Of a DNA stretch of 20,409 nucleotides, positions 1,752 through 14,475 are shown piece by piece. Within the stretch, counting starts at the first letter, position 1. Each line of letters opens with the position of its first letter. The notes beneath the pieces were generated by a model. The model was given only the letters and a program-made list of their open reading frames with translations. It did not search any database and was not told the DNA's origin. Position numbers and translations under genes: made by a program. Source of the DNA: a bacterium (GTDB lineage Bacteria; SZUA-182; DTGQ01); NCBI GenBank assembly GCA_040752695.1, contig JBFMGO010000108.1:1-20409 (forward strand), given 5' to 3'.

Positions 1752-1834
1752 TTCCGCACCTTGTACGATCTGTTCTATCTTTCTTTGTCCTCTCACAGTC
1801 AAGAGAAAATAAGAGAAAAGAGAAATTGACAAAA

Positions 1835-2899
1835 ATGCGCTTTCGAAATGTTTGTATTGAGGCATTTGGGATTGATTTGCCCGGAAATATCGTGACTTCA
1901 GCCGAGTTGGAAGAGCGGCTGTCGCCGCTCTACGACAGACTGAGACTGCCCTATGGCCGGTTGGAATTAATGACGGGAATCAAAGAACGCCGGTTCTGGA
2001 ACAAAGGCGCTTTGCCCAGTGAGGGCAGTATCAGGGCAGGAGAAAAGGCCATAGAAAGGGCAGAGAATGCAGGCCCGGTCAGAGAGAAGCTGCAATGCCT
2101 GATTCATGCCTCGGTCAGCCGCGATTTTTTAGAACCTGCCACAGCCACTGTCGTGCATCACGCTCTCGGGCTTTCTCCGGCAGCCTTTATCTTTGACCTG
2201 TCGAACGCCTGCCTGGGATTTGTCAATGGAATGATCGTTCTGGCCAGCATGATTGATTCAGGACAGGTGTCAGCCGGCATGGTGGTAGCCGGGGAACATG
2301 GCGGACCTCTGGTCGAGACAACCATAGCCCACCTTCTTTCCGATCCCGATCCATCGAGGGAAAAGCTAAAAAGTGCCTTTGCCTCTTTGACCATAGGCTC
2401 CGGTGCAGCGGCAGTCATATTGACTCACGCCGGCATCTCAAGGACCGGTCACAGGCTCCTTGGGGGTGCAACCCGAGCCGCTTCCCAGCACAACGGCTTG
2501 TGTCGGGGCGGGGTGGGGGGGAGTGACAGCGCACTGGACTCAGAGAGCCAGCCGACTATGAGGACCGATGCAGAGAAGCTCCTCATAGCAGGGTGCCAAC
2601 TGGCCGTAGAGACCTGGGCTGACACCAAAAGGTGCCTTGAGTGGAGCGATGGAGACGCAGACCGGTTTTTCTGTCATCAGGTAGGCACAGCTCACAGGAG
2701 GGCCCTGTTCAGCAGTCTTGAGCTTGACATGGAAAGGGATTTTCCTACCGTGGAATTTTTGGGGAATATGGGGTCGGTTTCCCTGCCGGTAACGATGGCT
2801 ATCGGAATTGAACAGGGGTTTTTGAAGGCCGGCCAGAAGGCCGGGCTTTTGGGTATTGGAAGCGGCATCAGCTGCTGCATGTTGGGAGTCGAGTGGTAG
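1835..2899 (+). CDS. oleA: OleA, thiolase/FabH-fold acyl-CoA condensing enzyme (olefin biosynthesis)
   Basis: MRF..V.IE start, LE.MTGI.ERR, FLEPATA (catalytic Glu), NACLGF (Cys), HQVG (His), GNMGSVS (Asn), LGIGSG..C. First gene of the oleABCD order. ATG 1835 is preferred over TTG 1826. Confidence 0.93.
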   Translation: MRFRNVCIEAFGIDLPGNIVTSAELEERLSPLYDRLRLPYGRLELMTGIKERRFWNKGALPSEGSIRAGEKAIERAENAGPVREKLQCLIHASVSRDFLEPATATVVHHALGLSPAAFIFDLSNACLGFVNGMIVLASMIDSGQVSAGMVVAGEHGGPLVETTIAHLLSDPDPSREKLKSAFASLTIGSGAAAVILTHAGISRTGHRLLGGATRAASQHNGLCRGGVGGSDSALDSESQPTMRTDAEKLLIAGCQLAVETWADTKRCLEWSDGDADRFFCHQVGTAHRRALFSSLELDMERDFPTVEFLGNMGSVSLPVTMAIGIEQGFLKAGQKAGLLGIGSGISCCMLGVEW

Positions 2900-2994
2900 A
2901 TGGAGCGGAGGGGGCAGGTGAAGCAGTGGCAGATGGAGCGAGAGAAGACCAGGCTGTGGCAGGTGGAGCAGGGGCAGGCGAAGCAGTGGAACCT
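2893..2994 (+). repeat. Degenerate ~15/30-bp tandem repeat at the oleA/oleB junction
   Basis: GTGGTAGATGGAGCG.., GTGGCAGATGGAGCG.., GTGGCAGGTGGAGCA GGGGCAGGCGAAGCA GTGG; encodes VxDGA/GAGEA repeats. Confidence 0.8.
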
Positions 2995-3963
2995 ATAAAC
3001 CCCGATGCGTGGAAAGAACTCTATCCCTTTCGTTCTCACTCTCTCCGTCTTGGTGATTACCAATATCATTACCTGGATGAGGGATCGGGTGAGCCTGTCG
3101 TTATGCTTCACGGTAATCCCACCTGGTCCTTCTATTATCGGCACCTGGTGACGGGACTTTCCGATGGCTACAGAATCATTGTGCCGGATCACATGGGCTG
3201 TGGCCTGTCTGATAAGCCTCAGAGCTATCCCTATACCTTGAAACAGCATATCGACAATCTGGAAGCCCTGATGGAAGTCTTGAACCTTAACAATATTACC
3301 CTGGCCCTGCATGACTGGGGAGGGGCTATCGGTATGGGGTATGCCGTCCGGCATCCTGAAAGGATCAGGCGGCTGATTATTTTCAACACCGCAGCCTTTC
3401 TGTCGTCCAGAATGCCCTGGCAGATCGGCCTTTGCCGTATACCTGTCTTCGGCCATGTGGGTATCCGCTGCTTCAACGCTTTTGCCGGTACGGCCATTTA
3501 CCTGGCCTGCCAGCATCATGAGCGAATGACTCCGAAGGTCAGGGCCGGTTATCTGGCTCCGTATCGAAGCTATAAGAACCGGATCGCTCATCTTCGGTTC
3601 GTTCAGGATATCCCCATGCGGCCAGGGGATCAAAGCTACCCTCTCGTAGAGGCAATTCAGCAGCGCCTCTGCGAATTTCGCGATCGCCCCATGCTGATCC
3701 TGTGGGGAGGACGGGACTTTTGCTTCAATCACTCGTTTCTGGAAACCTGGCAAAGGTTTTTCCCCAGGGCCTATGTCCATGTATTCGAGGACGCGGGGCA
3801 TTATGTCGTCGAAGACGCTCATGAGCGGATTCTTCCCCTGGTGAGAAAATTTTTAGGTGATAATCCCCTTCCCGGCCATCAGAACCATTCGCCCGAACAA
3901 CAGGGCATGAAACAAAGGGACATGAAACGACGGGAAATGAAACAACAGGACACGACGATATGA
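2893..3963 (+). CDS. oleB: OleB, alpha/beta-hydrolase (haloalkane dehalogenase-like) beta-lactone decarboxylase
   Basis: YPF.SH, YLDEG.G, HGNPTWSFYY, PDH.GCGLSDKP, LHDWGG (nucleophile Asp), FVQDIP, AGHYV.ED (His). Lies between oleA and oleC. The true start may be GTG 2986, after a repeat-derived N-terminus. Confidence 0.9.
   Translation: MVDGAEGAGEAVADGAREDQAVAGGAGAGEAVEPINPDAWKELYPFRSHSLRLGDYQYHYLDEGSGEPVVMLHGNPTWSFYYRHLVTGLSDGYRIIVPDHMGCGLSDKPQSYPYTLKQHIDNLEALMEVLNLNNITLALHDWGGAIGMGYAVRHPERIRRLIIFNTAAFLSSRMPWQIGLCRIPVFGHVGIRCFNAFAGTAIYLACQHHERMTPKVRAGYLAPYRSYKNRIAHLRFVQDIPMRPGDQSYPLVEAIQQRLCEFRDRPMLILWGGRDFCFNHSFLETWQRFFPRAYVHVFEDAGHYVVEDAHERILPLVRKFLGDNPLPGHQNHSPEQQGMKQRDMKRREMKQQDTTI
3903..3962 (+). 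repeat. Degenerate 15-bp tandem repeat at the oleB/oleC junction
   Basis: GGGCATGAAACAAAG GGACATGAAACGACG GGAAATGAAACAACA GGACACGACGATATG (MKQRD MKRRE MKQQD). Confidence 0.8.
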
Positions 3964-5627
3964 ATATCGCCTCTTACCTGCCGGAAAATGCCCGGAAGAT
4001 TCCTTTTCAGCGTGCAGTGGTTTTCCCCCACAGCCGGGACGCACAGGGAAGGGTCTCCTATACCCATCTCACATTCCGGCAATTGAATGAGGAAGCTGAC
4101 CGCTATGCTCATGGATTCAAAACCCTTGGCATCCAAAGAGGGATGAGGGTATTATTGATGGTCAGGCCCGGCCTGGAATTCATCGCCCTCACCTTTGCCC
4201 TGTTCAAGATGGGAGCTGTGCCGGTCCTGATCGATCCGGGCATGGGCAAATCGAATCTCTTGAACTGCATCGCGTCGGTGGAGCCTGAGGCTTTAATAGC
4301 CATCCCTCTGGTCCATGCGGCCAGGCTCCTCTTCGGGAAGTATTTCCAAAGCGTGCGCTATTCGGTAACGGTTGGATCGAGGCGCTTTCCGGGCGGCGGT
4401 CCCACAATCCATGATGTCCGCAAGCTGGATTCGAAACCCTTCGAGGTTGTGGAAACAAAGGATACGGACACAGCGGCCATTCTTTTTACCACCGGCAGCA
4501 CCGGAAGCCCCAAGGGAGTGGTGTATCTTCACGGCATGTTCGATGCCCAGGTGAGGTTGATTCAGCAAGCTTACGCTATCGGGGAGGGAGAGGTGGACCT
4601 GCCCGGATTCCCTCTGTTTGCCCTGTTCAGCGCAGCAATGGGCATGACCAGTGTCATTCCCGATATGGATCCGACCAAACCCGCTCGGGTTAATCCTGCC
4701 AGGATCGTCGAGGCAATCCAGAATCACGGGGTTACCAACAGCTTCGGTTCTCCGGCCATCTGGAGGCGGGTAACCGAATACTGCCTCGATCAGGGGTTAC
4801 AGCTTCCTTCCCTAAAGCGCGTTCTCATGGCAGGGGCTCCCGTGCCTCTGGCCATCCTTGACCGCTTTACGAAGATCCTCTCGAAAGAGGCCGATACCTA
4901 CACCCCCTATGGGGCGACGGAATCTTTACCGGTCAGTTCGATCAGCGGCAGGCAGATCCTGCACGAGGCACAGGAAAAAATGCTGGATGGTGCCGGAACC
5001 TGCGTCGGATTACCTCTTCCCTCCATCAGGATCAAGATTATCGAGATCAAAGATGCGGTCATTCCCGCCTGGGATGAAGTTCGGGAGCTTCCCTGTGGTC
5101 ACATCGGAGAGATTGTGGTCTTTGGCCCTGTAGTAACCCATGAATATTATAACCGCCAGGAGGCCACAAATCTTGCCAAGATCCGTGACGGCACGAATAT
5201 CTGGCACCGCATGGGGGATGTCGGATATCTGGATGAGAAGGGCCTGCTCTGGTTTTGCGGACGGATGGCACATCGGGTAATCACGCTTAAAAGGACTTTG
5301 TTTACCGTCCCTTGCGAGGCCATTTTCAACCAGCACCCTCAGGTATTTCGCACCGCTCTTGTTGGAATCGGAAAAAAGCCCGATCAGCAGCCGGCGATCA
5401 TTGTAGAACCCAAAGAGGGAAAAATGCCAAAGGGGCAGGCTGACAAAAGGCGGCTCATCGAAGAGCTGAAAGAGCTCGGCCAAAGAAGCCCCCTGACCCG
5501 TGATATAGAGATTTTCCTGTTTCATCCCTCCTTCCCGGTCGATATCCGGCATAATGCCAAGATCTTCCGGGAAAAGCTGGCTGTTTGGGCTGAAGAACAG
5601 GTGAAAAAAGGTGAAAAAAAGAGGTAA
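3960..5627 (+). CDS. oleC: OleC, AMP-dependent ligase-family olefin beta-lactone synthetase
   Basis: MNIA start, LIDPGMG, FTTGSTGSPKG P-loop, FPLFALF, TPYGATE, WHRMGD, LWFCGR, FPVDIRHNAKIFRE (OleC-typical C-terminus). ATGA overlap with oleB. Confidence 0.93.
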   Translation: MNIASYLPENARKIPFQRAVVFPHSRDAQGRVSYTHLTFRQLNEEADRYAHGFKTLGIQRGMRVLLMVRPGLEFIALTFALFKMGAVPVLIDPGMGKSNLLNCIASVEPEALIAIPLVHAARLLFGKYFQSVRYSVTVGSRRFPGGGPTIHDVRKLDSKPFEVVETKDTDTAAILFTTGSTGSPKGVVYLHGMFDAQVRLIQQAYAIGEGEVDLPGFPLFALFSAAMGMTSVIPDMDPTKPARVNPARIVEAIQNHGVTNSFGSPAIWRRVTEYCLDQGLQLPSLKRVLMAGAPVPLAILDRFTKILSKEADTYTPYGATESLPVSSISGRQILHEAQEKMLDGAGTCVGLPLPSIRIKIIEIKDAVIPAWDEVRELPCGHIGEIVVFGPVVTHEYYNRQEATNLAKIRDGTNIWHRMGDVGYLDEKGLLWFCGRMAHRVITLKRTLFTVPCEAIFNQHPQVFRTALVGIGKKPDQQPAIIVEPKEGKMPKGQADKRRLIEELKELGQRSPLTRDIEIFLFHPSFPVDIRHNAKIFREKLAVWAEEQVKKGEKKR

Positions 5628-5684
5628 GATACATAAATTGAGATACGTAAATATGGAAATAATTAAACAGGAGATTGGCTTATT

Positions 5685-6698
5685 ATGAAAGCCCTGGTGA
5701 CTGGTGGAGGAGGATTTATCGGAGGGGCTATTGTAGCCAGGCTGCTTGAGCGTAATGATCGGGTCCGCGTGCTGGGCAGGCGAAAATACCCTGAACTCGC
5801 CAAATCCGGTGTAGAAATCGTTCAGGGGGATATCCGCAACAGGCAGAACGTAGAGGATGCCTGTCGAGGTATGGATTGCGTTTTTCATGTCGCTGCCCTG
5901 ACCGGGATCTGGGGGCCGCGGGATGATTTTTATCAGACAAATGTCGTGGGTACGCAAAACGTTATCTCGGGCTGTCATACGCATGGGGTGAGGATACTGG
6001 TTTATACCAGTTCTCCCAGCGTAGTTCATGATCAGCGTGATCAGATCAATATTGACGAAACCACTCCTTACCCCAAAGAGTATCTATGCCCTTACCCTGA
6101 GACAAAAGCCATGGCCGAGCGGATGGTCCTTCAGGCGAACGGCAGCGGCAATGGGCAGGGGCACCTTTTGACCACATCGCTCCGCCCTCATCTGGTCTGG
6201 GGGCCGGGGGACACCAATCTCATCCCGAGGCTTCTTGACCGTGCCAGGAAGGGAAAATTGATGATAGTGGGAAATGGGACTAACAAGGTTGATCTCACCT
6301 ATGTTGAAAACGTGGCCGAGGCGCATCTATTGGCTGCTGACAGGCTTCAATCCGCATCCGCGTCATCGTCATCCGTAGCTGGAGAGGCTTTCTTTATCAG
6401 TCAGGGTGAGCCGGTGCTCCTGTGGCAATGGATCGATCAGTTTTTGAAGAGAATGGGTATTCCGGGCGTTAAAAAGTCCATATCTCTGGCAACGGCTTAT
6501 AAGGTCGGCCAGGCCATGGAGACCTTCTACCGGATCTTCCGCCTGAAAAGAGAGCCCCTTATGACCAGGTTTTTAGCCTCACAGCTTGGGACGTCTCACT
6601 ATTTTGACATTTCGAAGGCGAAAGAGCGGTTGAACTACACGCCTTCCGTCAGTATGAAAGAGGGAATGGACAGGCTGGTGGCCTATTATTCCCGATGA
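5685..6698 (+). CDS. oleD: OleD, 3-beta-HSD-like extended SDR, 2-alkyl-3-oxoalkanoate reductase
   Basis: TGGGGFIG Rossmann motif, FHVAA..G.WG, YTSSPSV, YPETK (YxxxK), LRPHLVWGPGD. RBS GGAG upstream; follows oleC. Confidence 0.9.
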   Translation: MKALVTGGGGFIGGAIVARLLERNDRVRVLGRRKYPELAKSGVEIVQGDIRNRQNVEDACRGMDCVFHVAALTGIWGPRDDFYQTNVVGTQNVISGCHTHGVRILVYTSSPSVVHDQRDQINIDETTPYPKEYLCPYPETKAMAERMVLQANGSGNGQGHLLTTSLRPHLVWGPGDTNLIPRLLDRARKGKLMIVGNGTNKVDLTYVENVAEAHLLAADRLQSASASSSSVAGEAFFISQGEPVLLWQWIDQFLKRMGIPGVKKSISLATAYKVGQAMETFYRIFRLKREPLMTRFLASQLGTSHYFDISKAKERLNYTPSVSMKEGMDRLVAYYSR

Positions 6699-6742
6699 GA
6701 GGAAAAAAACCGGCAGAAATAAGGGGAAAACGGGATTTTCTC

Positions 6743-6772
6743 TTGCAAGAGAAGGCTTTCTAATGTTATATT
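6743..6772 (+). promoter_or_regulatory. Sigma70-type promoter upstream of the FabF-like gene
   Basis: TTGCAA (6743-6748) - 18 bp - TATATT (6767-6772), with an extended -10 TG at 6764-6765. Confidence 0.55.
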
Positions 6773-6830
6773 GTCTACTCTGGTAAATTTCCCGCCATTA
6801 TGAGTAACTCCTTGGTAGAGTAAAGAAAAA

Positions 6831-8069
6831 ATGTCTTATAATCAAGAAAGAGTCGTTATTACCGGGATCGGCTTAACCGCTCCTAACGGGAATTCTCTTC
6901 AGGAATTCCGGACGAATCTCCTGGAGGGGAAATCCGGGATTCAAAAATTTGAAACACGCTACATGGGCGAAGTCCTGGCCGGAGTCTGTCATTTCGATAC
7001 GCTTAAATATCAAAAAAGAAAAGAGGCCCGGCGAGGGACGAGAGCGGGGTCCATAGCCATTTACTGTGCTCAGGAGGCGGTCAGGAATTCCGGCATCGAT
7101 TGGGCGCATTTTGATAAATCCAGAGTCGGTATTTATCTGGGAATCACCGAACACGGGAATGTAGAAACAGAAAACGAGATTTATAACATTCAACAGTTTA
7201 ACTATGATATACGATACTGGACCCACCATCATAATCCCAGAACCGTGGCCAATAATCCGGCTGGTGAATTATCGCTCAACATGGGCATCACCGGGCCGCA
7301 CTACACCCTGGGCGCTGCTTGCGCAGCCGGAAACTGCGGCTTGATTCAGGGGGTACAGATGCTGCGGCTGCATGAGGTGGATTTAGCTCTGGCTGGCGGA
7401 GTATCCGAAAGTATTCACACCTTCGGCATTTTTGCCAGCTTCAAGAGCCAGGGGGCTTTGGCCAGTCATGAGGACCCGGCCAGGGCTTGCCGGCCTTTCG
7501 ATCTTGACCGCAATGGTATCGTGGTTTCCGAAGGCGGATGCATCTATACCCTTGAGCGCCTGGAAGATGCCCAAAGAAGGGGCGCTTTTATTTATGGAGA
7601 GATCGTGGGTTATGCCATCAATTCCGACGCGCTGGACTTTGTGATTCCCAGCGGCGAGCGGCAGGCCGAGTGCATGGAATTGGCCCTTAAAAGGGCACAT
7701 ATCCTCCCTCACGAGATTGACCTGATCAGCAGCCATGCCACGGCAACGCCGGTTGGGGATATCGAGGAAGCAAAAGCCATGCGGAAAGTTTTTGGCTCCA
7801 GTGTATATATCAATAACACCAAAAGCTATATCGGACACACGATGGGTGCTGCCGGCGCTCTGGAGTTGGCCGGTAATATTCCTTCGTTTCAGGATTCGAT
7901 TATCCATCCAACCATTAATCTGGAAAACCCAGACCCTGAATGCAATCTGAATAACCTGATCAAAATGAAACCACAACACGTTGATCGTGTGGATTATATC
8001 CTCAATAATTCTTTCGGCATGCTCGGAATCAATTCCGTAGTGATTGTCAAACGGTTCGAAAAATGGTAA
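6831..8069 (+). CDS. Beta-ketoacyl-ACP synthase II-like (FabF family, divergent subfamily)
   Basis: RVVITGIG, AACAAG (catalytic Cys), RPFD..R.G, SHATAT (His), KSYIGHTMGAAG (His), NNSFG. The unusual HHHNPRTVANNPAGE segment differs from housekeeping FabF. Confidence 0.9.
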   Translation: MSYNQERVVITGIGLTAPNGNSLQEFRTNLLEGKSGIQKFETRYMGEVLAGVCHFDTLKYQKRKEARRGTRAGSIAIYCAQEAVRNSGIDWAHFDKSRVGIYLGITEHGNVETENEIYNIQQFNYDIRYWTHHHNPRTVANNPAGELSLNMGITGPHYTLGAACAAGNCGLIQGVQMLRLHEVDLALAGGVSESIHTFGIFASFKSQGALASHEDPARACRPFDLDRNGIVVSEGGCIYTLERLEDAQRRGAFIYGEIVGYAINSDALDFVIPSGERQAECMELALKRAHILPHEIDLISSHATATPVGDIEEAKAMRKVFGSSVYINNTKSYIGHTMGAAGALELAGNIPSFQDSIIHPTINLENPDPECNLNNLIKMKPQHVDRVDYILNNSFGMLGINSVVIVKRFEKW

Positions 8070-8081
8070 AACAATGGGGTA

Positions 8082-8107
8082 TATAGGTCAATGAGGAAGA
8101 ACCTATA
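8082..8107 (+). other. Small intergenic hairpin between the ketosynthase and ACP genes
   Basis: TATAGGT-12 nt-ACCTATA inverted repeat. Confidence 0.35.
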
Positions 8108-8142
8108 GCCAATCCAGAAAAGAATAAGGATACGGAGATACT

Positions 8143-8394
8143 ATGACCCAAGAAGAGATCAAGGCCTCAGTCTTAGACATCATTTCCGAAATTGTTCCGG
8201 ATGAGGATACGAGTCATCTTGATCCAGAGGTACGCATCAGAGATCAAATCAATCTGGACTCCATGGATTTTTTGGACATTATCATGGAGCTTCGGAAGAG
8301 GTATCAGGTGGATGTCCCGGAAGAAGATTATCCAAAGCTGGCCTCTCTGAATAGCTGTGCGGCCTATCTGGATCCCTGGCTTAAGGATAAATAA
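8143..8394 (+). CDS. Acyl carrier protein
   Basis: Acidic 83-aa protein with the LDSMD phosphopantetheinylation motif and ELRKRY.V.VPEEDY. RBS GGAG upstream. Confidence 0.93.
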   Translation: MTQEEIKASVLDIISEIVPDEDTSHLDPEVRIRDQINLDSMDFLDIIMELRKRYQVDVPEEDYPKLASLNSCAAYLDPWLKDK

Positions 8395-8402
8395 CAAATA
8401 TA

Positions 8403-9785
8403 ATGGATTACGACGTTATCATCATCGGTGCCGGGCTGTCCGGTCTGGCCGCAGGGATACGGCTGGCTCATTTTGGCCAGCGGGTCTGTATTTTGGAAAA
8501 ACACGGCAGGGTAGGGGGATTGAATTCCTACTATCCCATACAGGGCCGCATTACTGATGTCGGCCTCCATGCCATGACCAATTACGTGCCCAAATCCGTG
8601 AAATCCGCTCCTTTAGTCAAGATATTGCGGCAGCTTCGGCTATCCTATGATGATTTACAACTCTGCCCTCAAGCCACATCCCGCATCATCTTTCCGGAAA
8701 AGGAACTGCAATTTACGAATGATTTTCATTTCCTGGTCCAGGAAATTGCCGACAAATTCCCCGGCCAGGTTGACCGCTTCATGAAGCTCACCAGATCTCT
8801 GGTCAGCTATGACGACTTCTCCCTGGGAGAAAAATCAGTCTCAACCCGCACGGTCTTAAACTCTTTTCTCTCCGACCCTCTTTTGATCGAAATGCTTCTG
8901 TGCCCGGTCCTATTTTACGGAAGCCCGAAGGAAGATGACATTGATTTTTCGCAATTTTCCATTCTCTTTAGAAGTATCTTCACCGAAGGATTTGCCCGGC
9001 CCCGACAGGGAATGCAACAGATACTTCACCTTCTGGTCGAAAAATACCGGGAAAGCGGCGGAGAGTTGAGAACCCGCTGCCAGGCTCATCATCTCGGTAT
9101 CCAAAAGGATCTGGTAGCTGAAGTGCACCTGGCAGATGGAGAGATACTGGGGGCGAAAACCTTCATCTCGAGCATCGGCCTTCCCGAAACACGGGCACTG
9201 TGCTCTCATTGGGAGCCTTTGGCCCAAGAGCCGGAGCCTGGAGAATTATCTTTTATCGAATCCATCCTGTTTACCGATGTTTTCCCTTCTCAAGCCCTTG
9301 GGTTTGAGCCTACCATTCTCTTTTATAGTGATAGCGACCGCTTTTGCTATAAGAAGCCTGACGGCCCGGTCGACCTGTCAAGCGGCGTAGTGTGCTGTCC
9401 CAATAACTACCAACTTACAGAGCCGATGCCAGAGGGAATAATCCGCCTTACTCATCTGGCGAATTTCAGCCTGTGGAATGGGTTTGATGCCAGCGAATAC
9501 CGAATGGCGAAAGACCGCTGGGCCCAGGAATCAGTGAAAAAAGCCGAGCGGTTCATCCCCTGCCTGTCACAGCACATCAAGGCCCAGGATACCTTTACGC
9601 CCAAAACGGTCCTAAAATTTACCGGCAGGTGCAATGGCGCGGTTTATGGTTCGCCAGATAAGGTAAGTGACGGACGGACCCCGATCAAAAACCTCTTTAT
9701 CTGCGGAACGGATCAGGGTTGGGTGGGAATCGTCGGCACTCTTCTCAGCGGCATTACCATTGCCAATAAGTATGTTTTGTATTGA
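8403..9785 (+). CDS. Phytoene desaturase (CrtI)-like FAD-dependent oxidoreductase
   Basis: YDVIIIGAGLSGL FAD-binding motif, LEKH...GG, DVGLHA, FTPKT...FT....GAVYG, NLFICGTDQG..GIVG..LSG. Starts 8 bp after the ACP gene. Confidence 0.85.
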   Translation: MDYDVIIIGAGLSGLAAGIRLAHFGQRVCILEKHGRVGGLNSYYPIQGRITDVGLHAMTNYVPKSVKSAPLVKILRQLRLSYDDLQLCPQATSRIIFPEKELQFTNDFHFLVQEIADKFPGQVDRFMKLTRSLVSYDDFSLGEKSVSTRTVLNSFLSDPLLIEMLLCPVLFYGSPKEDDIDFSQFSILFRSIFTEGFARPRQGMQQILHLLVEKYRESGGELRTRCQAHHLGIQKDLVAEVHLADGEILGAKTFISSIGLPETRALCSHWEPLAQEPEPGELSFIESILFTDVFPSQALGFEPTILFYSDSDRFCYKKPDGPVDLSSGVVCCPNNYQLTEPMPEGIIRLTHLANFSLWNGFDASEYRMAKDRWAQESVKKAERFIPCLSQHIKAQDTFTPKTVLKFTGRCNGAVYGSPDKVSDGRTPIKNLFICGTDQGWVGIVGTLLSGITIANKYVLY

Positions 9786-9953: not shown

Positions 9954-11900
9954 ATGTATGTTGATTTAAAAGAATTATCAGCCCGCGAAAGCGAACGGGT
10001 GGAGTGGAAAGAAAATATCGCTGATATAGATGACATTCTTAAGTCTATTACAGCCTTTGCAAATGATTATGCAAACTTAGGCGGTGGATATTTAGTATGT
10101 GGTGCCAGAGAAGGCAAGGATGAGCACGGATTCCAAAAGGTATTTTATACAGGACTGGAGGCTCAGAGGCTGAGGGAAATTAAAAGCAGGGTCTTTTCAG
10201 AGTGCAGAGATAAAGTGAACCCCGAAGTGGTACCCTCAGCCGAGGAAATTTCAGTCCCCACCGATGATTCAAAAAGAATACTTATTTTTATTATTCCAGC
10301 TACAGGGTACGCTCATTCTTATAGAGCCCGGGGGAAAGATGCTTCTACATACTATATAAGAATGGGTGACAATACCATTGAAGCAAGAAACGGCCTGCTG
10401 AGAGAATTATTAATACAAAAGAAACAACTTGAACCCTGGGATAAACGAGTTAATAATGAAGCTACTATTCAAGACATTGATTTAGTAATCTTAAGAGACT
10501 ATCTTCAAGAGATGGGTCTATGGTCTCCTAAGAAAGCCATAGAAGACTATCTTTCCGCAAAAGATAAGATTTCTGATTTTGTGCCCCCTTTAGCTGCCAG
10601 AGTTAACCTGACAAATGTTTTGAAACCAAAAAATTTTACTCTTTTAATGTTTGGCAGAAACCCTTTGGACTTTTTTGAAGGTGCATATACGAATTTTTCA
10701 ATTTATAGAGGAAAAGATAGAAGCGAACCTACTGCGGAAAGACATCAGATTACTGGTACGATTGTCCAGCAGGCAAGAAAATTGATCGAGCTTTTGAATG
10801 CCGAATCATATGTAGCTTTTGATAAAACTGCCGCCATTCCTAATCAGGTTAAATATCCTATCAGAGCTTTACAAGAGGCAGTCGTCAATGCATTAGTCCA
10901 CAGGGATTACGAATCATCTCAGCCTACACGGGTCACCGTTTTTATTGACCGAATTGAAATAAATTCTCCGGGAGCGCTGCCAAGAGCTATTGATAAGCAA
11001 AAATTTTTATCGGGAAAGGCCCACCCTCATTGGCGAAACCAGACTTTAGCCTATTTTTTTAATAAATTACAACTTGCACAAGCTGAGGGGCAGGGAATAC
11101 CGACCATTCTGAGAACAATGAGAGAGGAGGGCTGTCCGAATCCAATTTTCGAACTCGAAACGGAAAGTGTTATCTGTATATTACCAGCCCATCCAAGGCA
11201 TCAGATCATGCGAGAAATCCATGATATCGAGAATAAAATAGTTATTGGAAATTATGTCGAGGCTTTTAGTAGAATAATGGAAATCCTAAAAGAAGATCCG
11301 TATAATTTCAGAGTATTAGATTTATTTTGCGAGGTAAATAACCTTCAAAATACCCAGGAGAAAGTTTATCACTTTATTAATGAAAATAAAATTGAAATAG
11401 AAAAAATTAATCCTAACAGCCTGATAAACATTGCTGAAACACTTTCGTTTGTTAAAAATAATTCTGAAATTTCTGAGTTCGCAAATAAGATATTGTCTGT
11501 AGCAAGCTTAGGGCAACTGGAAGAGAAGTTGATATTAAGATTGGCAATTAACCTTAAGAGATTAGGTAAGGACGAGCAGGTTATTGAATTTTTGGATACT
11601 ATTTTCAAAACTCAACCCTATTTAAGTAAAAATTCCTCTTTGCTCGAAGAAAGGGCAAGAGCCAGAATGAATTTAGCAAAAATATGTATTAATACAGGCT
11701 GGAATCGAAAATATAGTGCAAAGATGAGAGCAAAAGGATGGGAAGAATGCAGGAAATATTTAAAAGATGCTGAAAGCGATTTAAATTTAGCCTTCCAAAA
11801 TGTCCAGAATCCTATAGAAAAAGATTATATACTGCAAGATTTAACATTTCTAAGGAAGATGAAGGAAAAATCACAAAAACCTTCCCAAAGCAAAAAATAG
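9954..11900 (+). CDS. Schlafen/AlbA_2 domain + HATPase_c_4 (RecG C-terminal-like) domain + helical TPR-like C-terminus
   Basis: ESERVEWKE and ITAFAND...GGGYLV.G (AlbA_2); YP..ALQEAVVNALVHRDY, IEINSPG, RN..LA, EGQGI (HATPase_c_4); the last ~230 aa are helical repeats (A...I..ILKEDPYN; L....PYL). Visibly more AT-rich than the flanks. Confidence 0.8.
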   Translation: MYVDLKELSARESERVEWKENIADIDDILKSITAFANDYANLGGGYLVCGAREGKDEHGFQKVFYTGLEAQRLREIKSRVFSECRDKVNPEVVPSAEEISVPTDDSKRILIFIIPATGYAHSYRARGKDASTYYIRMGDNTIEARNGLLRELLIQKKQLEPWDKRVNNEATIQDIDLVILRDYLQEMGLWSPKKAIEDYLSAKDKISDFVPPLAARVNLTNVLKPKNFTLLMFGRNPLDFFEGAYTNFSIYRGKDRSEPTAERHQITGTIVQQARKLIELLNAESYVAFDKTAAIPNQVKYPIRALQEAVVNALVHRDYESSQPTRVTVFIDRIEINSPGALPRAIDKQKFLSGKAHPHWRNQTLAYFFNKLQLAQAEGQGIPTILRTMREEGCPNPIFELETESVICILPAHPRHQIMREIHDIENKIVIGNYVEAFSRIMEILKEDPYNFRVLDLFCEVNNLQNTQEKVYHFINENKIEIEKINPNSLINIAETLSFVKNNSEISEFANKILSVASLGQLEEKLILRLAINLKRLGKDEQVIEFLDTIFKTQPYLSKNSSLLEERARARMNLAKICINTGWNRKYSAKMRAKGWEECRKYLKDAESDLNLAFQNVQNPIEKDYILQDLTFLRKMKEKSQKPSQSKK

Positions 11901-11984: not shown

Positions 11985-13460
11985 TCAAGACCTTACGAAA
12001 GGCGGCGCATATTCGAAGGGGCGCCGCACCTGCGAGCCGTGACCAAGAGTAAGGAGCATTTGAACGGGCCGAATCCTTTCGTCAACTGCCCAGACATCTT
12101 CAGGTCTCATGTTTCTTATGGCATAAAACCATTCACTGGATTGGAAAAATCCGGGTGTATTCACCACCTCCAGGCTGATCTTCCGTTCCTGCTCGAGCTT
12201 ACTCCAAATTGCAGAGCCTGGTATTGCCCAATACCACTGAAGATATACCCTCACCCCGTAATCGAGAATAAGATTGGTTATAAAATCGAATGTTCTCAGG
12301 CAATCTTCGGTCGTATGCCAGGGGAAGCCGATGATAAAGCTGAAAACCGCCCTCTGGCTGAGGTTGAATTTTTGAAGGTGTAAGGCCGCCTGTTTAATCA
12401 GTTCAGGAGAGACGGCTTTATGGATTTTTTTCGCTTCACCCTCGCTGCTTACTTCTGCACCAACCAGAAGGTCACTGGTAAATGGTTCTAAAGCTTCAAT
12501 AAGTTCCAGGTCCTGCAAATCGACTAAGGCGGCATCATAAGTCAGCCTGTGACGGAACGAGTCTTCCGATAAGGCTTTGCATATATCGATGATTCTTCGA
12601 TGGTCGGTTGTAAAGGTGTTATCTACGATGTTAAGCTTTTTAAACCTCGTTTTTTCACAATACGGGAGTGCATGGACCAGTTGTTCCAAAGCGACTTTGG
12701 CTGAATAAGACCGCCAGCTATTTTTCCCGATAATTGAGCAAAATGTGCAGCTATTTCGACAACCGCGCGATGTTTCCACCGGCATGGTACAGTATTGTGA
12801 AGCCGGGATAAGATCATAGGCAGGGTGCCAATCGAAGGTGGTAAGATCGTGTTCTTGTACGACCTGAGGTATTGTGCCGTTCTTCGCACCAGCGCCGTTC
12901 TTCACACCAATGTCATTCTTTATACCAGCGCCATTTTTCACACCAGTGCCATTCTTCACACTGCCTTTGCACAGGGAAAAACCGGGGATCGTGTTTTCCT
13001 TACCCGGTTTGAGTGTTTCGCCCGACCTTAAGGTTTCATAGACAAGATGGATGTAATTATCAGCCTCTCCTCGAAAAAGACCATCAAAACATTCGCTTAC
13101 CATTACAGACTGAGGATAGTAAGTAGCGTGCGGCCCGCCTATGCAGGTTTTGATACCGGGATTGTTCTCCTTGACCTTTTTGGCCAGGGTTCGGATGACC
13201 GCCCAATTCAGTGAGTTAGCGCTAAAGAATATTACTTCATAGTGAAGAAGTTCCTGGATAACCTCTTCAAGTGAAATGTGGGGAGCGGCTACCCAGTCGA
13301 ATACATCACATTGATACCCCTTACGCCTCAGGTGGGCTACCAGCAGGTATACTCCAAGCGCAGGACTATCCCGGTAGGAATCCTGCATCACAGGAATCAA
13401 GGTATTATTATATAAAGTCATTACTGGACAACTGACAAACACGCAAGGTCTCGAAGGCAT
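11985..13460 (-). CDS. Cobalamin (B12)-binding domain radical SAM enzyme (class B methyltransferase-like)
   Basis: N-terminal PALGVYLLVAHLR..GY.C.VFD and IGGPHAT, GEA (B12-binding domain); ETSRGCRNSCTFC (CxxxCxxC); DNTFT; FIIGFP. The likely start is ATG 13460 (MPSRPC, with GGAG upstream) rather than 13628, because the extension runs through a large hairpin. Confidence 0.88.
   Translation of the reverse strand: MPSRPCVFVSCPVMTLYNNTLIPVMQDSYRDSPALGVYLLVAHLRRKGYQCDVFDWVAAPHISLEEVIQELLHYEVIFFSANSLNWAVIRTLAKKVKENNPGIKTCIGGPHATYYPQSVMVSECFDGLFRGEADNYIHLVYETLRSGETLKPGKENTIPGFSLCKGSVKNGTGVKNGAGIKNDIGVKNGAGAKNGTIPQVVQEHDLTTFDWHPAYDLIPASQYCTMPVETSRGCRNSCTFCSIIGKNSWRSYSAKVALEQLVHALPYCEKTRFKKLNIVDNTFTTDHRRIIDICKALSEDSFRHRLTYDAALVDLQDLELIEALEPFTSDLLVGAEVSSEGEAKKIHKAVSPELIKQAALHLQKFNLSQRAVFSFIIGFPWHTTEDCLRTFDFITNLILDYGVRVYLQWYWAIPGSAIWSKLEQERKISLEVVNTPGFFQSSEWFYAIRNMRPEDVWAVDERIRPVQMLLTLGHGSQVRRPFEYAPPFVRS
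12874..12963 (-). repeat. Five 18-bp in-frame tandem repeats inside the radical SAM gene
   Basis: On + strand: GTGCCGTTCTTCGCACCA GCGCCGTTCTTCACACCA ATGTCATTCTTTATACCA GCGCCATTTTTCACACCA GTGCCATTCTTCACACTG, encoding VKNGTG VKNGAG IKNDIG VKNGAG AKNGT. Confidence 0.9.
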
Positions 13461-13539
13461 TTTTTTTATCCGGTCTCCGCATTTTCGGGTCATCCTAAAA
13501 GAGCGTTTGCCGTCTGGCTTGCTCTTCCGGCAGGATATT

Positions 13540-13596
13540 AGCGCTTTTCCTCTCCAAAGTGGTTGTTTATCCTCTTTGTTGGAGAGGAAAAGTGCT
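13540..13596 (-). promoter_or_regulatory. Strong stem-loop between the putative precursor gene and the radical SAM gene
   Basis: AGCGCTTTTCCTCTCCAA (13540-13557) and TTGGAGAGGAAAAGTGCT (13579-13596): 18-bp arms with one mismatch and a 21-nt loop. Confidence 0.7.
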
Positions 13597-13632
13597 TTAT
13601 TTTTCACTCCAGCCCAATACTGGGTCACTGTT

Positions 13633-14031
13633 TTACATTACCGCCGATGCCTCTTCCTCGAGCGCATCCTGAAGGTTGCCGGAGCCGACAACCGTTCCGA
13701 TGATCACCGCGGCTATGACGAGAGGCGCAGGTGCCTGGCCGAATACTTGAGCCTGCCCGGCGGCAGTGAGCTGTTTCTCCGATGCCCTGTGCCCCAGGGC
13801 CACCAAGATATCTTCATCCGTGATCTTTCCGCCATCTCCAAAGGTAATTTCAATGCCAACCTTAGCCAGCATACCTTGAAAATCTTCTCTAAACTTTTTC
13901 GCCAGTTCGGGATCTCTTACCATGTCTCGGGTCAGATTCGCCAATGCTTCCTGCGAATAAGCATCCGAGAAGGCGAAGGTCATCTTGGAACCGGGTAATA
14001 CAAAAATTTTTTTTGCTCCCTCTTTTTTCAT
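13633..14031 (-). CDS. Small protein, putative RiPP precursor (NHLP/Nif11-like leader, hydrophobic core, acidic tail)
   Basis: RBS GAGGGA upstream of ATG. EALANLTRDMVRDPELAKKFREDFQGMLAKVGIEI resembles the L...A..DP.F...L..DP...L...GI leader helices. Core-like APAPLVIAAVIIGTVVG. Co-oriented and directly upstream of a B12 radical SAM gene. The CDS is confident; the function is inferred. Confidence 0.6.
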   Translation of the reverse strand: MKKEGAKKIFVLPGSKMTFAFSDAYSQEALANLTRDMVRDPELAKKFREDFQGMLAKVGIEITFGDGGKITDEDILVALGHRASEKQLTAAGQAQVFGQAPAPLVIAAVIIGTVVGSGNLQDALEEEASAVM

Positions 14032-14475
14032 AGTCTTTCCCTCATTATATGAATTGCTGGAAAAAACTCATTACGATTAAGTTCTTTCCATTACGCTTTT
14101 CGTTTAAGCAGTTCTTTTAATCCAGTGTACTTACCACTTTTCTTTATTTGATGTCGGTATGTTACTGGTAAAATCGCTATGGAAAAATTCGACTGTGAAG
14201 CCGTGGAAAGAAATGCACATTCCTGTTATGGTTGTTTTCGTATTCTATGGATTGATACCTCTTTGTTCTGATATTTGCCCGTTTTTGTTATACTTGTTAC
14301 TATAATGGAGGTAGATAGTATGAGGACTGCTGATCCAGCACTTAACTCGATCCCAGGACATTCGACAGGTATGGATCATTAGGTATGAATCCTTAACTGA
14401 TAGAGTTCGCGATGAAAATTAGTCGCAATTTTTTTGCTCACCTTTTTTCTTTTTTAAATATGTACAGGGGGAAAA

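Follow-up and report, generated by a model that had tools for sequence, protein, structure and literature searches.

We describe a pair of adjacent genes that encode a small precursor-like protein and a B12-binding radical SAM enzyme, located in a bacterial DNA stretch of 20,409 nucleotides (the window). The two fairly likely make up a minimal, leader-directed C-beta-methylation system that works like the proteusin and clavusporin methylases, and the pair is most likely an uncharacterised, stripped-down variant of this known type of peptide-modifying pathway. A stand-alone two-gene system for peptide C-methylation had been proposed in the initial annotation of this DNA; the gene pair and its linkage are borne out here, and methylation would be the probable chemistry. 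Our literature search, which covered mainly open-access papers, found no publication on this precursor/enzyme family.

The gene pair and its spacer

The features of the pair, with the evidence for each, are as follows.

14039-14043, minus strand: Shine-Dalgarno-like GAGGG, 7 nt 5' of the precursor ATG (sequence)
13633-14031, minus strand: precursor gene, 132 aa, P0001 (ORF; 27-member aligned family; purifying selection)
13786-14004, minus strand: leader domain, residues 10-82 (identity, fold model, Os1348 match, modelled interface)
13732-13785, minus strand: variable linker, residues 83-100 (low identity, pLDDT below 50)
13687-13731, minus strand: putative core, residues 101-115, Pro and then an aliphatic run (family composition)
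13636-13686, minus strand: tail, residues 116-132, GSxNL and then an acidic stretch, a possible follower (family alignment)
13540-13596, minus strand: long spacer hairpin, no U-tract (folding against shuffles)
About 13490-13537, minus strand: second spacer hairpin (folding)
11985-13460, minus strand: B12-binding radical SAM enzyme, 491 aa, P0005, without a detected RRE domain (PF02310 and PF04055, clade, model)
12876-12961, minus strand: 18-bp tandem repeat, 4.8 copies, strain-specific (encodes a disordered insertion that separates the B12 from the radical SAM domain)
12738-12761, minus strand: Cx3Cx2C iron-sulfur motif, C234, C238 and C241 (invariant, 41/41 aligned enzymes)
12030-12299, minus strand: region with two C-terminal helices (388-399 and 461-477), the predicted binding site of the leader (complex model)

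The 132-aa ORF is a real gene under purifying selection, with leader pN of 0.18-0.21 versus pS of 0.50-0.75 against three relatives. The protein segments and the good ribosome-binding site that had been reported for it are both present. Single-sequence scans of P0001 against Pfam and NCBIfam gave no significant match, and precursor and enzyme both fall in unnamed families. ESM Atlas searches with the precursor returned sub-threshold leads only (best feature scores 0.79 and 0.81), with a cluster labelled 'putative NHLP-related RiPP peptide' as the top structural row (TM 0.36/0.50). Crov588, the top PDB sequence match of the precursor profile, was dropped as a sum of tiny repeat matches.

The co-oriented downstream gene is, as annotated, a B12-binding radical SAM gene, with both Pfam domains above cut-off (B12-binding, 46 bits against 32; Radical_SAM, 41 bits against 29.5). 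An ORF finder opened its frame at GTG 13628 (547 aa), whereas ATG 13460 is the start used in the database gene call and by orthologues (491 aa); from the latter start the spacer is 172 nt, in agreement with the earlier estimate of about 170 bp. Judged by its sequence, the enzyme has a class B architecture, with a B12-binding domain at the N terminus, and a radical SAM domain carrying the three-Cys motif; cobalamin binding and methyl transfer are its predicted activities. Its model has a pLDDT of 91.6, with values below 50 in the tandem-repeat insertion (residues 167-193), and the host genome encodes cbiD and cobS. Foldseek's best matches were MgmA/QCMT, AprD4, OxsB, CysS, TsrM and TokK, at 10-18% identity. 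The position aligned with the Trp of the TokK/CysS 'SCYVWN' motif, a Trp that in TokK forms the lower cobalamin face, is hydrophobic in 41/41 enzymes (Met 31, Leu 7, Ile 2, Phe 1).

Kinship to PoyB/PoyC/AerC had been suggested; it holds insofar as the enzyme is of the B12-dependent radical SAM type, but not as to family membership. Against TIGR03975, the PoyB/PoyC-type model, the enzyme scores 44.2 bits for a cut-off of 281.85, and the Cx7Cx2C motif of PoyC and MpcB was not found in the 41 aligned enzymes. In quick trees, which do not include EreB, PoyC or MpcB, the enzyme clade comprises 46 rows (SH-aLRT 99); the comparison with those three enzymes is by profile scores, motif and length only. 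The enzyme thus appears to belong to a separate RRE-less clade that is of neither PoyB/PoyC/AerC nor MpcB type. Members of a related enzyme clade are found clustered with YcaO or LanM and with canonical NHLP precursors that score above cut-off.

The strong hairpin reported between the genes is present in the window (spacer folding z -4.8, with 0/200 shuffles as good), but it is limited to the host family. Strong hairpins were seen only in the five host-family spacers (z -4.4 to -8.0), with a related stem in same-genus relatives, and were not found in the four short spacers (19-72 nt) of distant loci. Terminator prediction did not call the window's hairpin. A shared regulatory RNA was rejected because the spacer has no real match in Rfam, is single-copy in the host genome rather than a genomic repeat, and aligns poorly even within the family (47% mean column identity). 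Our guess is that the hairpin might be a lineage-specific element that stabilises the transcript or damps read-through.

Linkage and distribution

Two enzyme-first scans yielded 10 in-clade loci (5 of the 17 and 5 of the 18 returned). The precursor was present upstream in all seven of these that had upstream DNA; the remaining three start in or at the enzyme, and one such genome has the pair on another contig. When near-identical loci were merged and the window and a further locus (G002) included, the precursor lay directly upstream of the enzyme at 8/8 independent in-clade loci, spanning the host's own phylum, Acidobacteriota, Alphaproteobacteria and one metagenome contig. The initial annotation had named homologues unlinked to radical SAM genes as the case that would speak against a two-gene system; at every one of these loci, instead, the leader is kept and the same radical SAM clade adjoins it. 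Among three more distant loci found by the enzyme profile alone, a blind test, two have an upstream precursor homologue (G344, E 1.9e-7; G1223, E 1.9e-12), and none was found upstream at the third (G937), the weakest enzyme-profile match. Within the host phylum both genes occur in the same 4 of 20 genomes, adjacent to each other, at four different chromosomal sites. Over 8 pairs, which are not independent, precursor and enzyme identities co-vary (Pearson 0.92, Spearman 0.82).

The precursor was found in 1 of 251 genomes sampled, and the enzyme in 2, 2, 2 and 1 genomes of four samples of 401, each of which includes the centre genome. Mesorhizobium and Pyrinomonadaceae are among the carriers of the pair, and the enzyme P0016 comes from Bradyrhizobium roseum, which is in culture. 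No in-clade enzyme was found in plasmid or phage records or on viral contigs, the last giving one weak partial match. Mobile or defence-type surroundings were present at 4/10 loci: an AlbA_2 gene in the window, a Gabija-like pair (L022), BREX-type ATPases 4-5 kb away (L001) and a conjugative element (G344).

At all loci examined the cassette consists of two genes, with no other gene common to the loci and with no DUF5825 partner, S9 peptidase or MFS transporter beside the precursor. An epimerase, a peptidase and an ABC exporter had been noted as missing from the neighbourhood, and this agrees with our results: none lies in the window, and a scan of 28 of the roughly 82 neighbours gave no peptidase or exporter. 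Two full-length peptidase-ABC exporters are encoded on other contigs of the host, both below the cut-off of the NHLP-exporter model TIGR03796. A canonical NHLP precursor was not matched in the host genome by a search that found nothing in controls either. At one locus (G043) a YydG-like enzyme lies ~5 kb off on the other strand, adjoining its own precursor-like gene. An ole-type lipid cluster lies 2 kb from the pair in the window, on the other strand and beyond an unrelated gene; a link to it was rejected because no relative keeps ole-type genes near the pair.

Precursor anatomy and the modelled complex

In the P0001 model (pLDDT 67-87 in blocks 11-70, 64 overall), the leader consists of a beta-hairpin with an LPxS motif, helices at residues 27-39, 41-49 and 51-57, and a fourth helix at 72-78 that ends in a GHR motif. 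The 'two-helix segment' of the initial annotation is thus modelled as three helices rather than two. Across the 27-member family, mean pairwise identity is 0.38 in the leader and 0.15 in the linker, whose length varies from 9 to 25 residues. A variable, disordered linker followed by a compositionally biased tail is the anatomy of a precursor.

An NHLP-like leader had been proposed, and several matches concur with this, those to curated models staying below cut-off. The Os1348 NHLP-clan model (NF038399) was matched by 6/27 members (best E 1.2e-5, best score 25 bits); every member scores below its 40-bit cut-off, and the G344 homologue reaches 36 bits. The family profile matches the Os1348 structure (6LK7) at E 0.0046, five models of the clan in its wide sense (which takes in Os1348, IniB N-terminal, TIGR04351 and TIGR04509) give concordant sub-cut-off matches, and bridging homologues tie the leader to the clan at E 5.2e-9 and 4.9e-7. 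Against TIGR03793, the NHLP precursor model (cut-off 50.9 bits), P0001 was unmatched, one of the 27 members scored 20.4 bits and the G344 homologue 25 bits. These profile matches indicate that the leader is a distant, Os1348-like NHLP-clan domain that falls under every curated cut-off. The alternative of a Nif11-like leader found no significant support, since neither NCBIfam nor Pfam gave a Nif11 (TIGR03798) match with an E value of 1 or less for any of the 27 members. Likeness to a borosin-binding domain gained no significant support either, with the borosin precursor SonA at Foldseek E 3.2 and no borosin methyltransferase among the neighbour genes scanned. The fold searches with the precursor model gave nothing above noise, and this includes both SonA and the proteusin precursor 8TB1, which ranked fifth with Z 2.9 and an rmsd of 4.1 (53 aligned).

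The family cores are 41% Val, 17% Ala, 15% Ile and 8% Leu, with an apolar run of 7-15 residues (median 12). The initial annotation expected a conserved leader and a variable core; the leader is conserved, but the core is not classically hypervariable, because its composition is kept and, at 0.36, it differs little from the leader in mean pairwise identity. Between G001 and G002 the core is even more conserved than the leader (pN 0.05 vs 0.12). A double-Gly site before the core is, as had been noted, absent from P0001; a G[G/A/S] in the 8 residues that precede the core occurs in 5/27 members, at no common position. The acidic follower holds for the host-family branch (present in P0001, P0003, P0004 and L002, absent in L001) but not elsewhere, most other members ending in PxPA[Y/H/E]. 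An Asn and a PxP motif come after the aliphatic run in most members.

The modelling of precursor with enzyme that had been suggested as a check yielded a complex, in which the leader docks on the C-terminal helices of the enzyme with a score of 0.75, the best of 3 controls reaching 0.00. By counts that apply here only roughly, own alignments having been used, that mark is reached by 116/157 solved complexes and 2/215 mismatched pairs. The runs share at least 26% of contacts, with a partner pLDDT of at least 57. The predicted interface involves leader residues 10-13, 27-48, 60 and 78-81 and the two enzyme helices, where hydrophobic positions 388, 399, 466, 470 and 472 are mostly conserved. Only the leader forms part of the confident interface; the core is unplaced in the model. 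In one homologue, P0075, the leader stands at the end of a membrane protein and has no core.

Proposed mechanism, alternatives and known systems

The small protein is very probably the substrate of the enzyme and, if it is, the chemistry is likely to be C-methylation. In the mechanism we propose, the small protein would be the precursor of a mobile two-gene cassette, and its folded, NHLP-clan-like leader (10-82) would clamp the two C-terminal helices of the RRE-less enzyme while the flexible linker feeds the aliphatic core into the active site. As a class B radical SAM C-methyltransferase, the enzyme would cleave SAM reductively to give a 5'-deoxyadenosyl radical, which would abstract the tertiary C-beta hydrogen of Val or Ile and possibly also act on flanking Pro or on Ala/Thr. 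The substrate radical would then take a methyl group from methylcobalamin, repeatedly, so that a highly hydrophobic core containing tert-Leu and beta-methyl-Ile would result. In members that have it, the acidic tail may keep the methylated peptide soluble, and leader removal and export, if any, would occur in trans through proteins outside the cassette. The product may perhaps be a surface- or membrane-active peptide. Counted against this reading are the G004 locus, where an in-frame TGA takes the place of a conserved Trp in the enzyme and the precursor is intact, the coreless P0075, and the scores of the enzyme far below all characterised-family cut-offs; its top NCBIfam match, ApyD (NF050148), reaches 76 bits for a cut-off of 750.

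We think it rather unlikely that the pair is a self-sufficient protein-methylation module, in which the leader would be read without an RRE, an uncut protein whose tail is hyper-methylated to tert-Leu would be the working molecule (membrane-inserting or self-assembling), and the two-gene unit would have moved between phyla, sometimes within defence islands or conjugative elements. Unlikely, too, is that the product of the same pair is simply the intact small protein, never cleaved or exported, with its hydrophobic (methylated) tail as a membrane anchor or self-assembling strand; the pair would then be dedicated to modifying a protein within the cell or at the membrane instead of yielding a secreted RiPP. 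The want of a conserved double-Gly site and of a peptidase or exporter among the scanned neighbours would fit this, as would the mobile or defence-type surroundings, the folded homodimer described for Os1348 (PMC7726476), and a 19-residue Kyte-Doolittle mean of at least 1.6 in 21/27 tails, as expected of a membrane anchor. However, the apolar runs are short and Val/Ile-rich rather than Leu-rich, the alternating Val/Arg/Gly core of the G344 homologue cannot span a membrane, and the two host peptidase-ABC exporters could act in trans.

That the precursor is the substrate of some other radical chemistry is distinctly improbable; candidates would be QCMT-like alpha-methylation or epimerisation, the formation of cross-links, desaturation, and modification of the conserved Asn/Pro that follows the run, where the Asn and PxP motif lend it some weight. 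B12-dependent radical SAM enzymes also catalyse non-methylation reactions (PMC11117315), and of the solved structures MgmA/QCMT, a C-alpha methylase with additional epimerase activity in vitro (PMC13469106), matches best in both sequence and fold. AprD4 and OxsB score similarly, but at these identities structure matches cannot rank functions, and in the literature drawn on, all characterised peptide B12-dependent radical SAM enzymes acting on Val/Ile-rich cores are beta-methylases. It is very improbable that the small protein serves the enzyme as a structural subunit or as an activator, as MpcC does for MpcB, and that the enzyme acts on a small molecule, lipid or other protein: the tight predicted binding of a folded domain, the core that is not hypervariable, the nearby ole-type cluster and the MpcC precedent (bioRxiv 2024.01.23.576971) would allow it, but that cluster is beside the pair in no relative, the clan to which the leader belongs is one of RiPP precursors, the linker and tail have precursor anatomy, and no other gene is common to the loci.

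On the preferred reading, leader-directed C-beta-methylation, no such system would be simpler than a stand-alone enzyme of ~460 aa paired with a folded, portable leader. It would be a candidate for introducing tert-leucine into designed peptides and would offer structural access to NHLP-clan leader recognition without an RRE. It also prompts one to ask how a modified peptide gene benefits a cell when neither a protease nor an exporter accompanies it.

Among characterised enzymes, MgmA/QCMT (PDB 9CCB), TokK and CysS share the compact B12-binding and radical SAM architecture; their substrates are methyl-coenzyme M reductase or small molecules, no leader is recognised, and they are at most 18% identical to the enzyme described here. 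ApyD, of the aminopyruvatide pathway, is a RiPP B12-dependent beta-methylase, acting on Tyr (PMC11117315), but it has an RRE, targets a Tyr motif and belongs to a six-gene cluster. The closest named relative of the leader is Os1348 of Pseudomonas sp. [quoted passage not shown]

A radical SAM epimerase is the usual hallmark of a proteusin pathway. In the ere pathway this is EreD, and EreB converts 7 Val to tert-Leu on the NHLP precursor EreA, giving pythonamide, although EreB showed no activity in E. coli (PMC9259500); NHLP precursor leaders end in a double-Gly cleavage motif (PMC2887384). In contrast to the proteusin precursors PoyA (polytheonamide, with the methylases PoyB and PoyC) and EreA, the leader here is below the NHLP cut-off and mostly without double-Gly, and the cassette has no epimerase or other maturase. 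The core is about 12 residues rather than the 46 of EreA, the enzyme is about 460-490 aa without an RRE found (the EreB gene is 1885 bp and the TIGR03975 model 606 positions), and Cx3Cx2C replaces the Cx7Cx2C of PoyC (PMC11285071). The clavusporin cluster of Streptomyces (mpcTPABC) is actinobacterial and includes an S9 peptidase and a transporter, its methylase MpcB carries Cx7Cx2C and depends on MpcC as a partner, and the precursor MpcA, a 39-mer, has only a short leader; none of this applies to the 132-aa precursor with its folded leader and its enzyme. A single B12-dependent enzyme, MpcB, beta-methylates Pro, Val, Ile and Thr of its core iteratively and in a leader-dependent manner (bioRxiv 2024.01.23.576971), and the clavusporins share with our family a short, Pro-flanked, Val/Ile-rich core and an optional acidic follower (bioRxiv 10.1101/2024.01.23.576971).

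The gene pair and its surroundings

The initial annotation had read a small ORF and its neighbour as a two-gene peptide C-methylation system, and ORF finding recovered both reading frames at the positions it proposed:

13633-14031, minus strand: precursor gene, an ORF of 132 aa
11985-13460, minus strand: enzyme gene, encoding a B12-binding radical SAM protein

The database gene call and an alignment of orthologues place the enzyme start at ATG 13460, yielding a protein of 491 aa. The 172-nt spacer contains two hairpins (folding z -4.8, equalled by 0 of 200 shuffles). Evolution of the precursor gene is of the protein type, with leader pN of 0.18-0.21 versus pS of 0.50-0.75 in three comparisons. 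Within the enzyme, an 18-bp tandem repeat of 4.8 copies (12876-12961) gives a strain-specific disordered insertion.

Elsewhere in the window, the plus strand encodes a single protein joining DUF4159 with cohesin and dockerin domains (274-1575) and a series that begins with oleABCD-like genes and continues with genes for a ketosynthase, an acyl carrier protein and a flavin oxidoreductase (1826-9785). The latter genes probably form an olefin or modified-lipid pathway without relation to the pair. A low-GC Schlafen/AlbA_2 plus HATPase_c_4 gene (9954-11900, plus strand), of a type typical of mobile islands, is convergent with the enzyme gene.

The precursor family and the possible fate of its product

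Homologues of the precursor numbered four proteins by single-sequence search and 19 by profile search of all representatives. We aligned 27 members (four close proteins, six from loci and 17 of 18 distant ones, with the 474-aa P0075 excluded). The leader (residues 10-82) is conserved, with a mean identity of 0.38, and the linker is variable (9-25 residues, mean identity 0.15). The expectation of a conserved leader and a variable core was thus borne out for the leader, but the core is not classically hypervariable: its mean identity of 0.36, due in part to low complexity, is near that of the leader, and between genomes G001 and G002 it is the most conserved part of the precursor (pN 0.05). The aliphatic run mostly starts with Pro. 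After it come Asn and PxPA[Y/H/E], which give way to GSxNL and an optional acidic tail in the branch of the host. Uninterrupted apolar runs span 7-15 residues (median 12), the best 12-residue core windows contain 41% Val, 17% Ala, 15% Ile and 8% Leu, and G[G/A/S] lies ahead of the core in 5 of the 27.

Among the 27 leaders, matches were obtained to IniB N-terminal (7), Os1348 (6), TIGR04351 (5), TIGR04509 (3) and TIGR03793 (1), and the precursor profile matches the Os1348 structure 6LK7 (E 0.0046). The NHLP-type leader proposed earlier therefore holds as a resemblance, but every NHLP-clan match is under cut-off (best, Os1348, E 1.2e-5). On these sequence matches, we regard the leader as a distant NHLP-clan domain; fold searches with the precursor model gave no match above noise. 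P0075, from an ENA contig, has a signal-like N-terminus, a glycosylhydrolase-like repeat region, a transmembrane segment and, at residues 398-472, a complete C-terminal leader domain of this family without a core. This may be a second use of the docking module, on the cytoplasmic side, or else an artefact of chimeric assembly.

The product may be processed in trans. As the initial annotation had noted, no peptidase or ABC exporter adjoins the pair, either in the window or among 28 scanned neighbours (~82 listed). Alternatively, the product may be an uncleaved, membrane-associated protein: 21 of the 27 precursor tails reach a 19-residue Kyte-Doolittle mean of 1.6, but their Val-rich runs are short and the core from genome G344 contains Arg. 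In G344, a 244-aa membrane protein encoded divergently from the precursor (L064:9777-10508), which has no Pfam or NCBIfam match and by eye resembles glutamic intramembrane proteases, could serve as the leader peptidase.

Linkage, distribution and the enzyme family

Two enzyme-first scans gave ten in-clade loci (5/17 and 5/18). Upstream DNA was present in seven, each with a precursor in the same orientation as the enzyme; six of these precursors were found unaided by a four-sequence profile, and that of L005 was identified by visual inspection. Loci L004, L019 and L021 begin in or at the enzyme, so they offer no upstream DNA to count; L004's genome has a precursor-enzyme pair on another contig. 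With near-identical loci merged and the window and G002 added, the precursor is upstream of the enzyme in 8/8, supporting the B12-radical SAM gene as a conserved neighbour in loci with upstream DNA, a count that covers none of the 18 distant precursors. Enzyme and precursor identities co-vary (r 0.92; 8 pairs, 28 non-independent comparisons). Beyond these two genes, none is common to the loci.

Of 20 genomes from the host phylum, the same four contain the precursor and the enzyme, always adjacent and each time at a different site (an AlbA_2 gene; the rho/argH gap; metabolic genes; a nucleotidyltransferase with BREX-type ATPases). Carriers of the cassette are few and scattered (1 of 251 genomes in Pyrinomonadaceae), as expected for a horizontally moving unit. 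An enzyme-only search in four samples of 401 genomes added three loci. G344, a sister branch in the tree, has upstream a precursor homologue of 134 aa whose core shows an alternating Val pattern and whose tail is charged, the pair lying inside a conjugative element; G1223 has a 104-aa homologue with the core Pro-Gly-Ala-Ala-Ile-Val-Val-Val. No precursor homologue was found at the G937 locus, whose enzyme is the weakest match and falls outside the group.

Several observations concern individual loci. In the enzyme gene of G004, a TGA replaces the codon of a conserved Trp (L001:2383-2385) in an otherwise intact frame, reflecting gene decay or an assembly error; the spacer of this locus contains a long palindrome resembling a REP element. 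G043 has another RiPP-like unit, also uncharacterised, at a distance of ~4-5 kb from the pair and on the opposite strand (L051:5220-8130, minus strand). It encodes a YydG-like radical SAM epimerase, an IniB/NHLP-like protein of 237 aa that is rich in Val, Ile and Ala over a long internal stretch, and an ATP-grasp-like protein. In G937 (L065:4483-11747), the distant B12-radical SAM relative and a second radical SAM gene lie amid genes that we judged VgrG-like and PAAR-like from translated sequence only.

The B12-binding and radical SAM domains of the enzyme exceed Pfam cut-offs, and Cx3Cx2C is invariant in 41/41 aligned relatives. The nearest solved folds to its model (pLDDT 91.6) are MgmA/QCMT, AprD4, OxsB, CysS, TsrM and TokK, at 10-18% identity. 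We built a quick tree with 77 rows, comprising 58 of 63 relatives at E <= 1e-20 (those of at least 400 aa), 14 from loci and five distant enzymes. The enzyme falls within a 46-row clade (SH-aLRT 99; three of these rows repeat a protein) whose named members come from Bradyrhizobium, Mesorhizobium, Pseudomonas, Pyrinomonadaceae and Desulfobacteraceae. The wider enzyme group is RiPP-associated, because the gene clusters of a related 8-row clade also encode YcaO or LanM and canonical NHLP precursors (80-84 bits, cut-off 50.9). In anaerobe metagenome bins, a related B12-radical SAM clade forms arrays of up to five paralogues (L006, L007, L008, L010, L011, L012, L013 and L025), clustered with YcaO or LanM and with precursors of the canonical NHLP or the Nif11-like kind.

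Predicted docking, chemistry and comparison with known systems

Modelling the pair as a complex, as had been suggested, gave a score of 0.75, versus 0.00 for the best of three controls; of 157 solved complexes, 116 attain the score mark, as do 2 of 215 mismatched pairs, counts that apply roughly here (own alignments). The runs share at least 26% of contacts, with partner pLDDT of at least 57. Leader residues 10-13, 27-48, 60 and 78-81 are predicted to contact enzyme helices 388-399 and 461-477. PDB searches found no similar complex, which lowers, without removing, the chance that the score reflects a complex already known to the predictor. The model leaves the core unplaced and therefore speaks for docking but not for a catalytic step.

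The enzyme would take a C-beta hydrogen from the core and then add a methyl group from methylcobalamin, iteratively. TokK and CysS carry a Trp whose aligned position is hydrophobic in 41/41 here; if this Trp belongs to the sp3-methylase arrangement, as we take it to, the enzyme would fit such an arrangement. Cobalamin is made by the host, as read from its genes (cbiD, cobS). The proposed hydrogen abstraction and methyl transfer follow established class B radical SAM chemistry (PMC11285071).

A literature search largely outside subscription journals found no paper on the precursor or enzyme family. The enzyme is far under every NCBIfam family cut-off (TIGR03975, 44 versus 282 bits; ApyD, 76 versus 750). 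The motif of PoyC and MpcB is Cx7Cx2C (PMC11285071; clavusporin preprint, bioRxiv 2024.01.23.576971) and the gene for EreB spans 1885 bp (PMC9259500), which places the enzyme outside the PoyC/MpcB/EreB family. Of the two nearest working analogies, EreB C-methylates Val of a peptide, with seven Val converted to tert-Leu (PMC9259500), and clavusporin has a Pro-flanked Val/Ile core and an optional acidic follower that resemble the tail of this precursor. By their defining criteria, the pair falls outside the NHLP, PoyB/C, proteusin and clavusporin families; by analogy, it appears to work in the manner of C-methylation in proteusin or clavusporin pathways.
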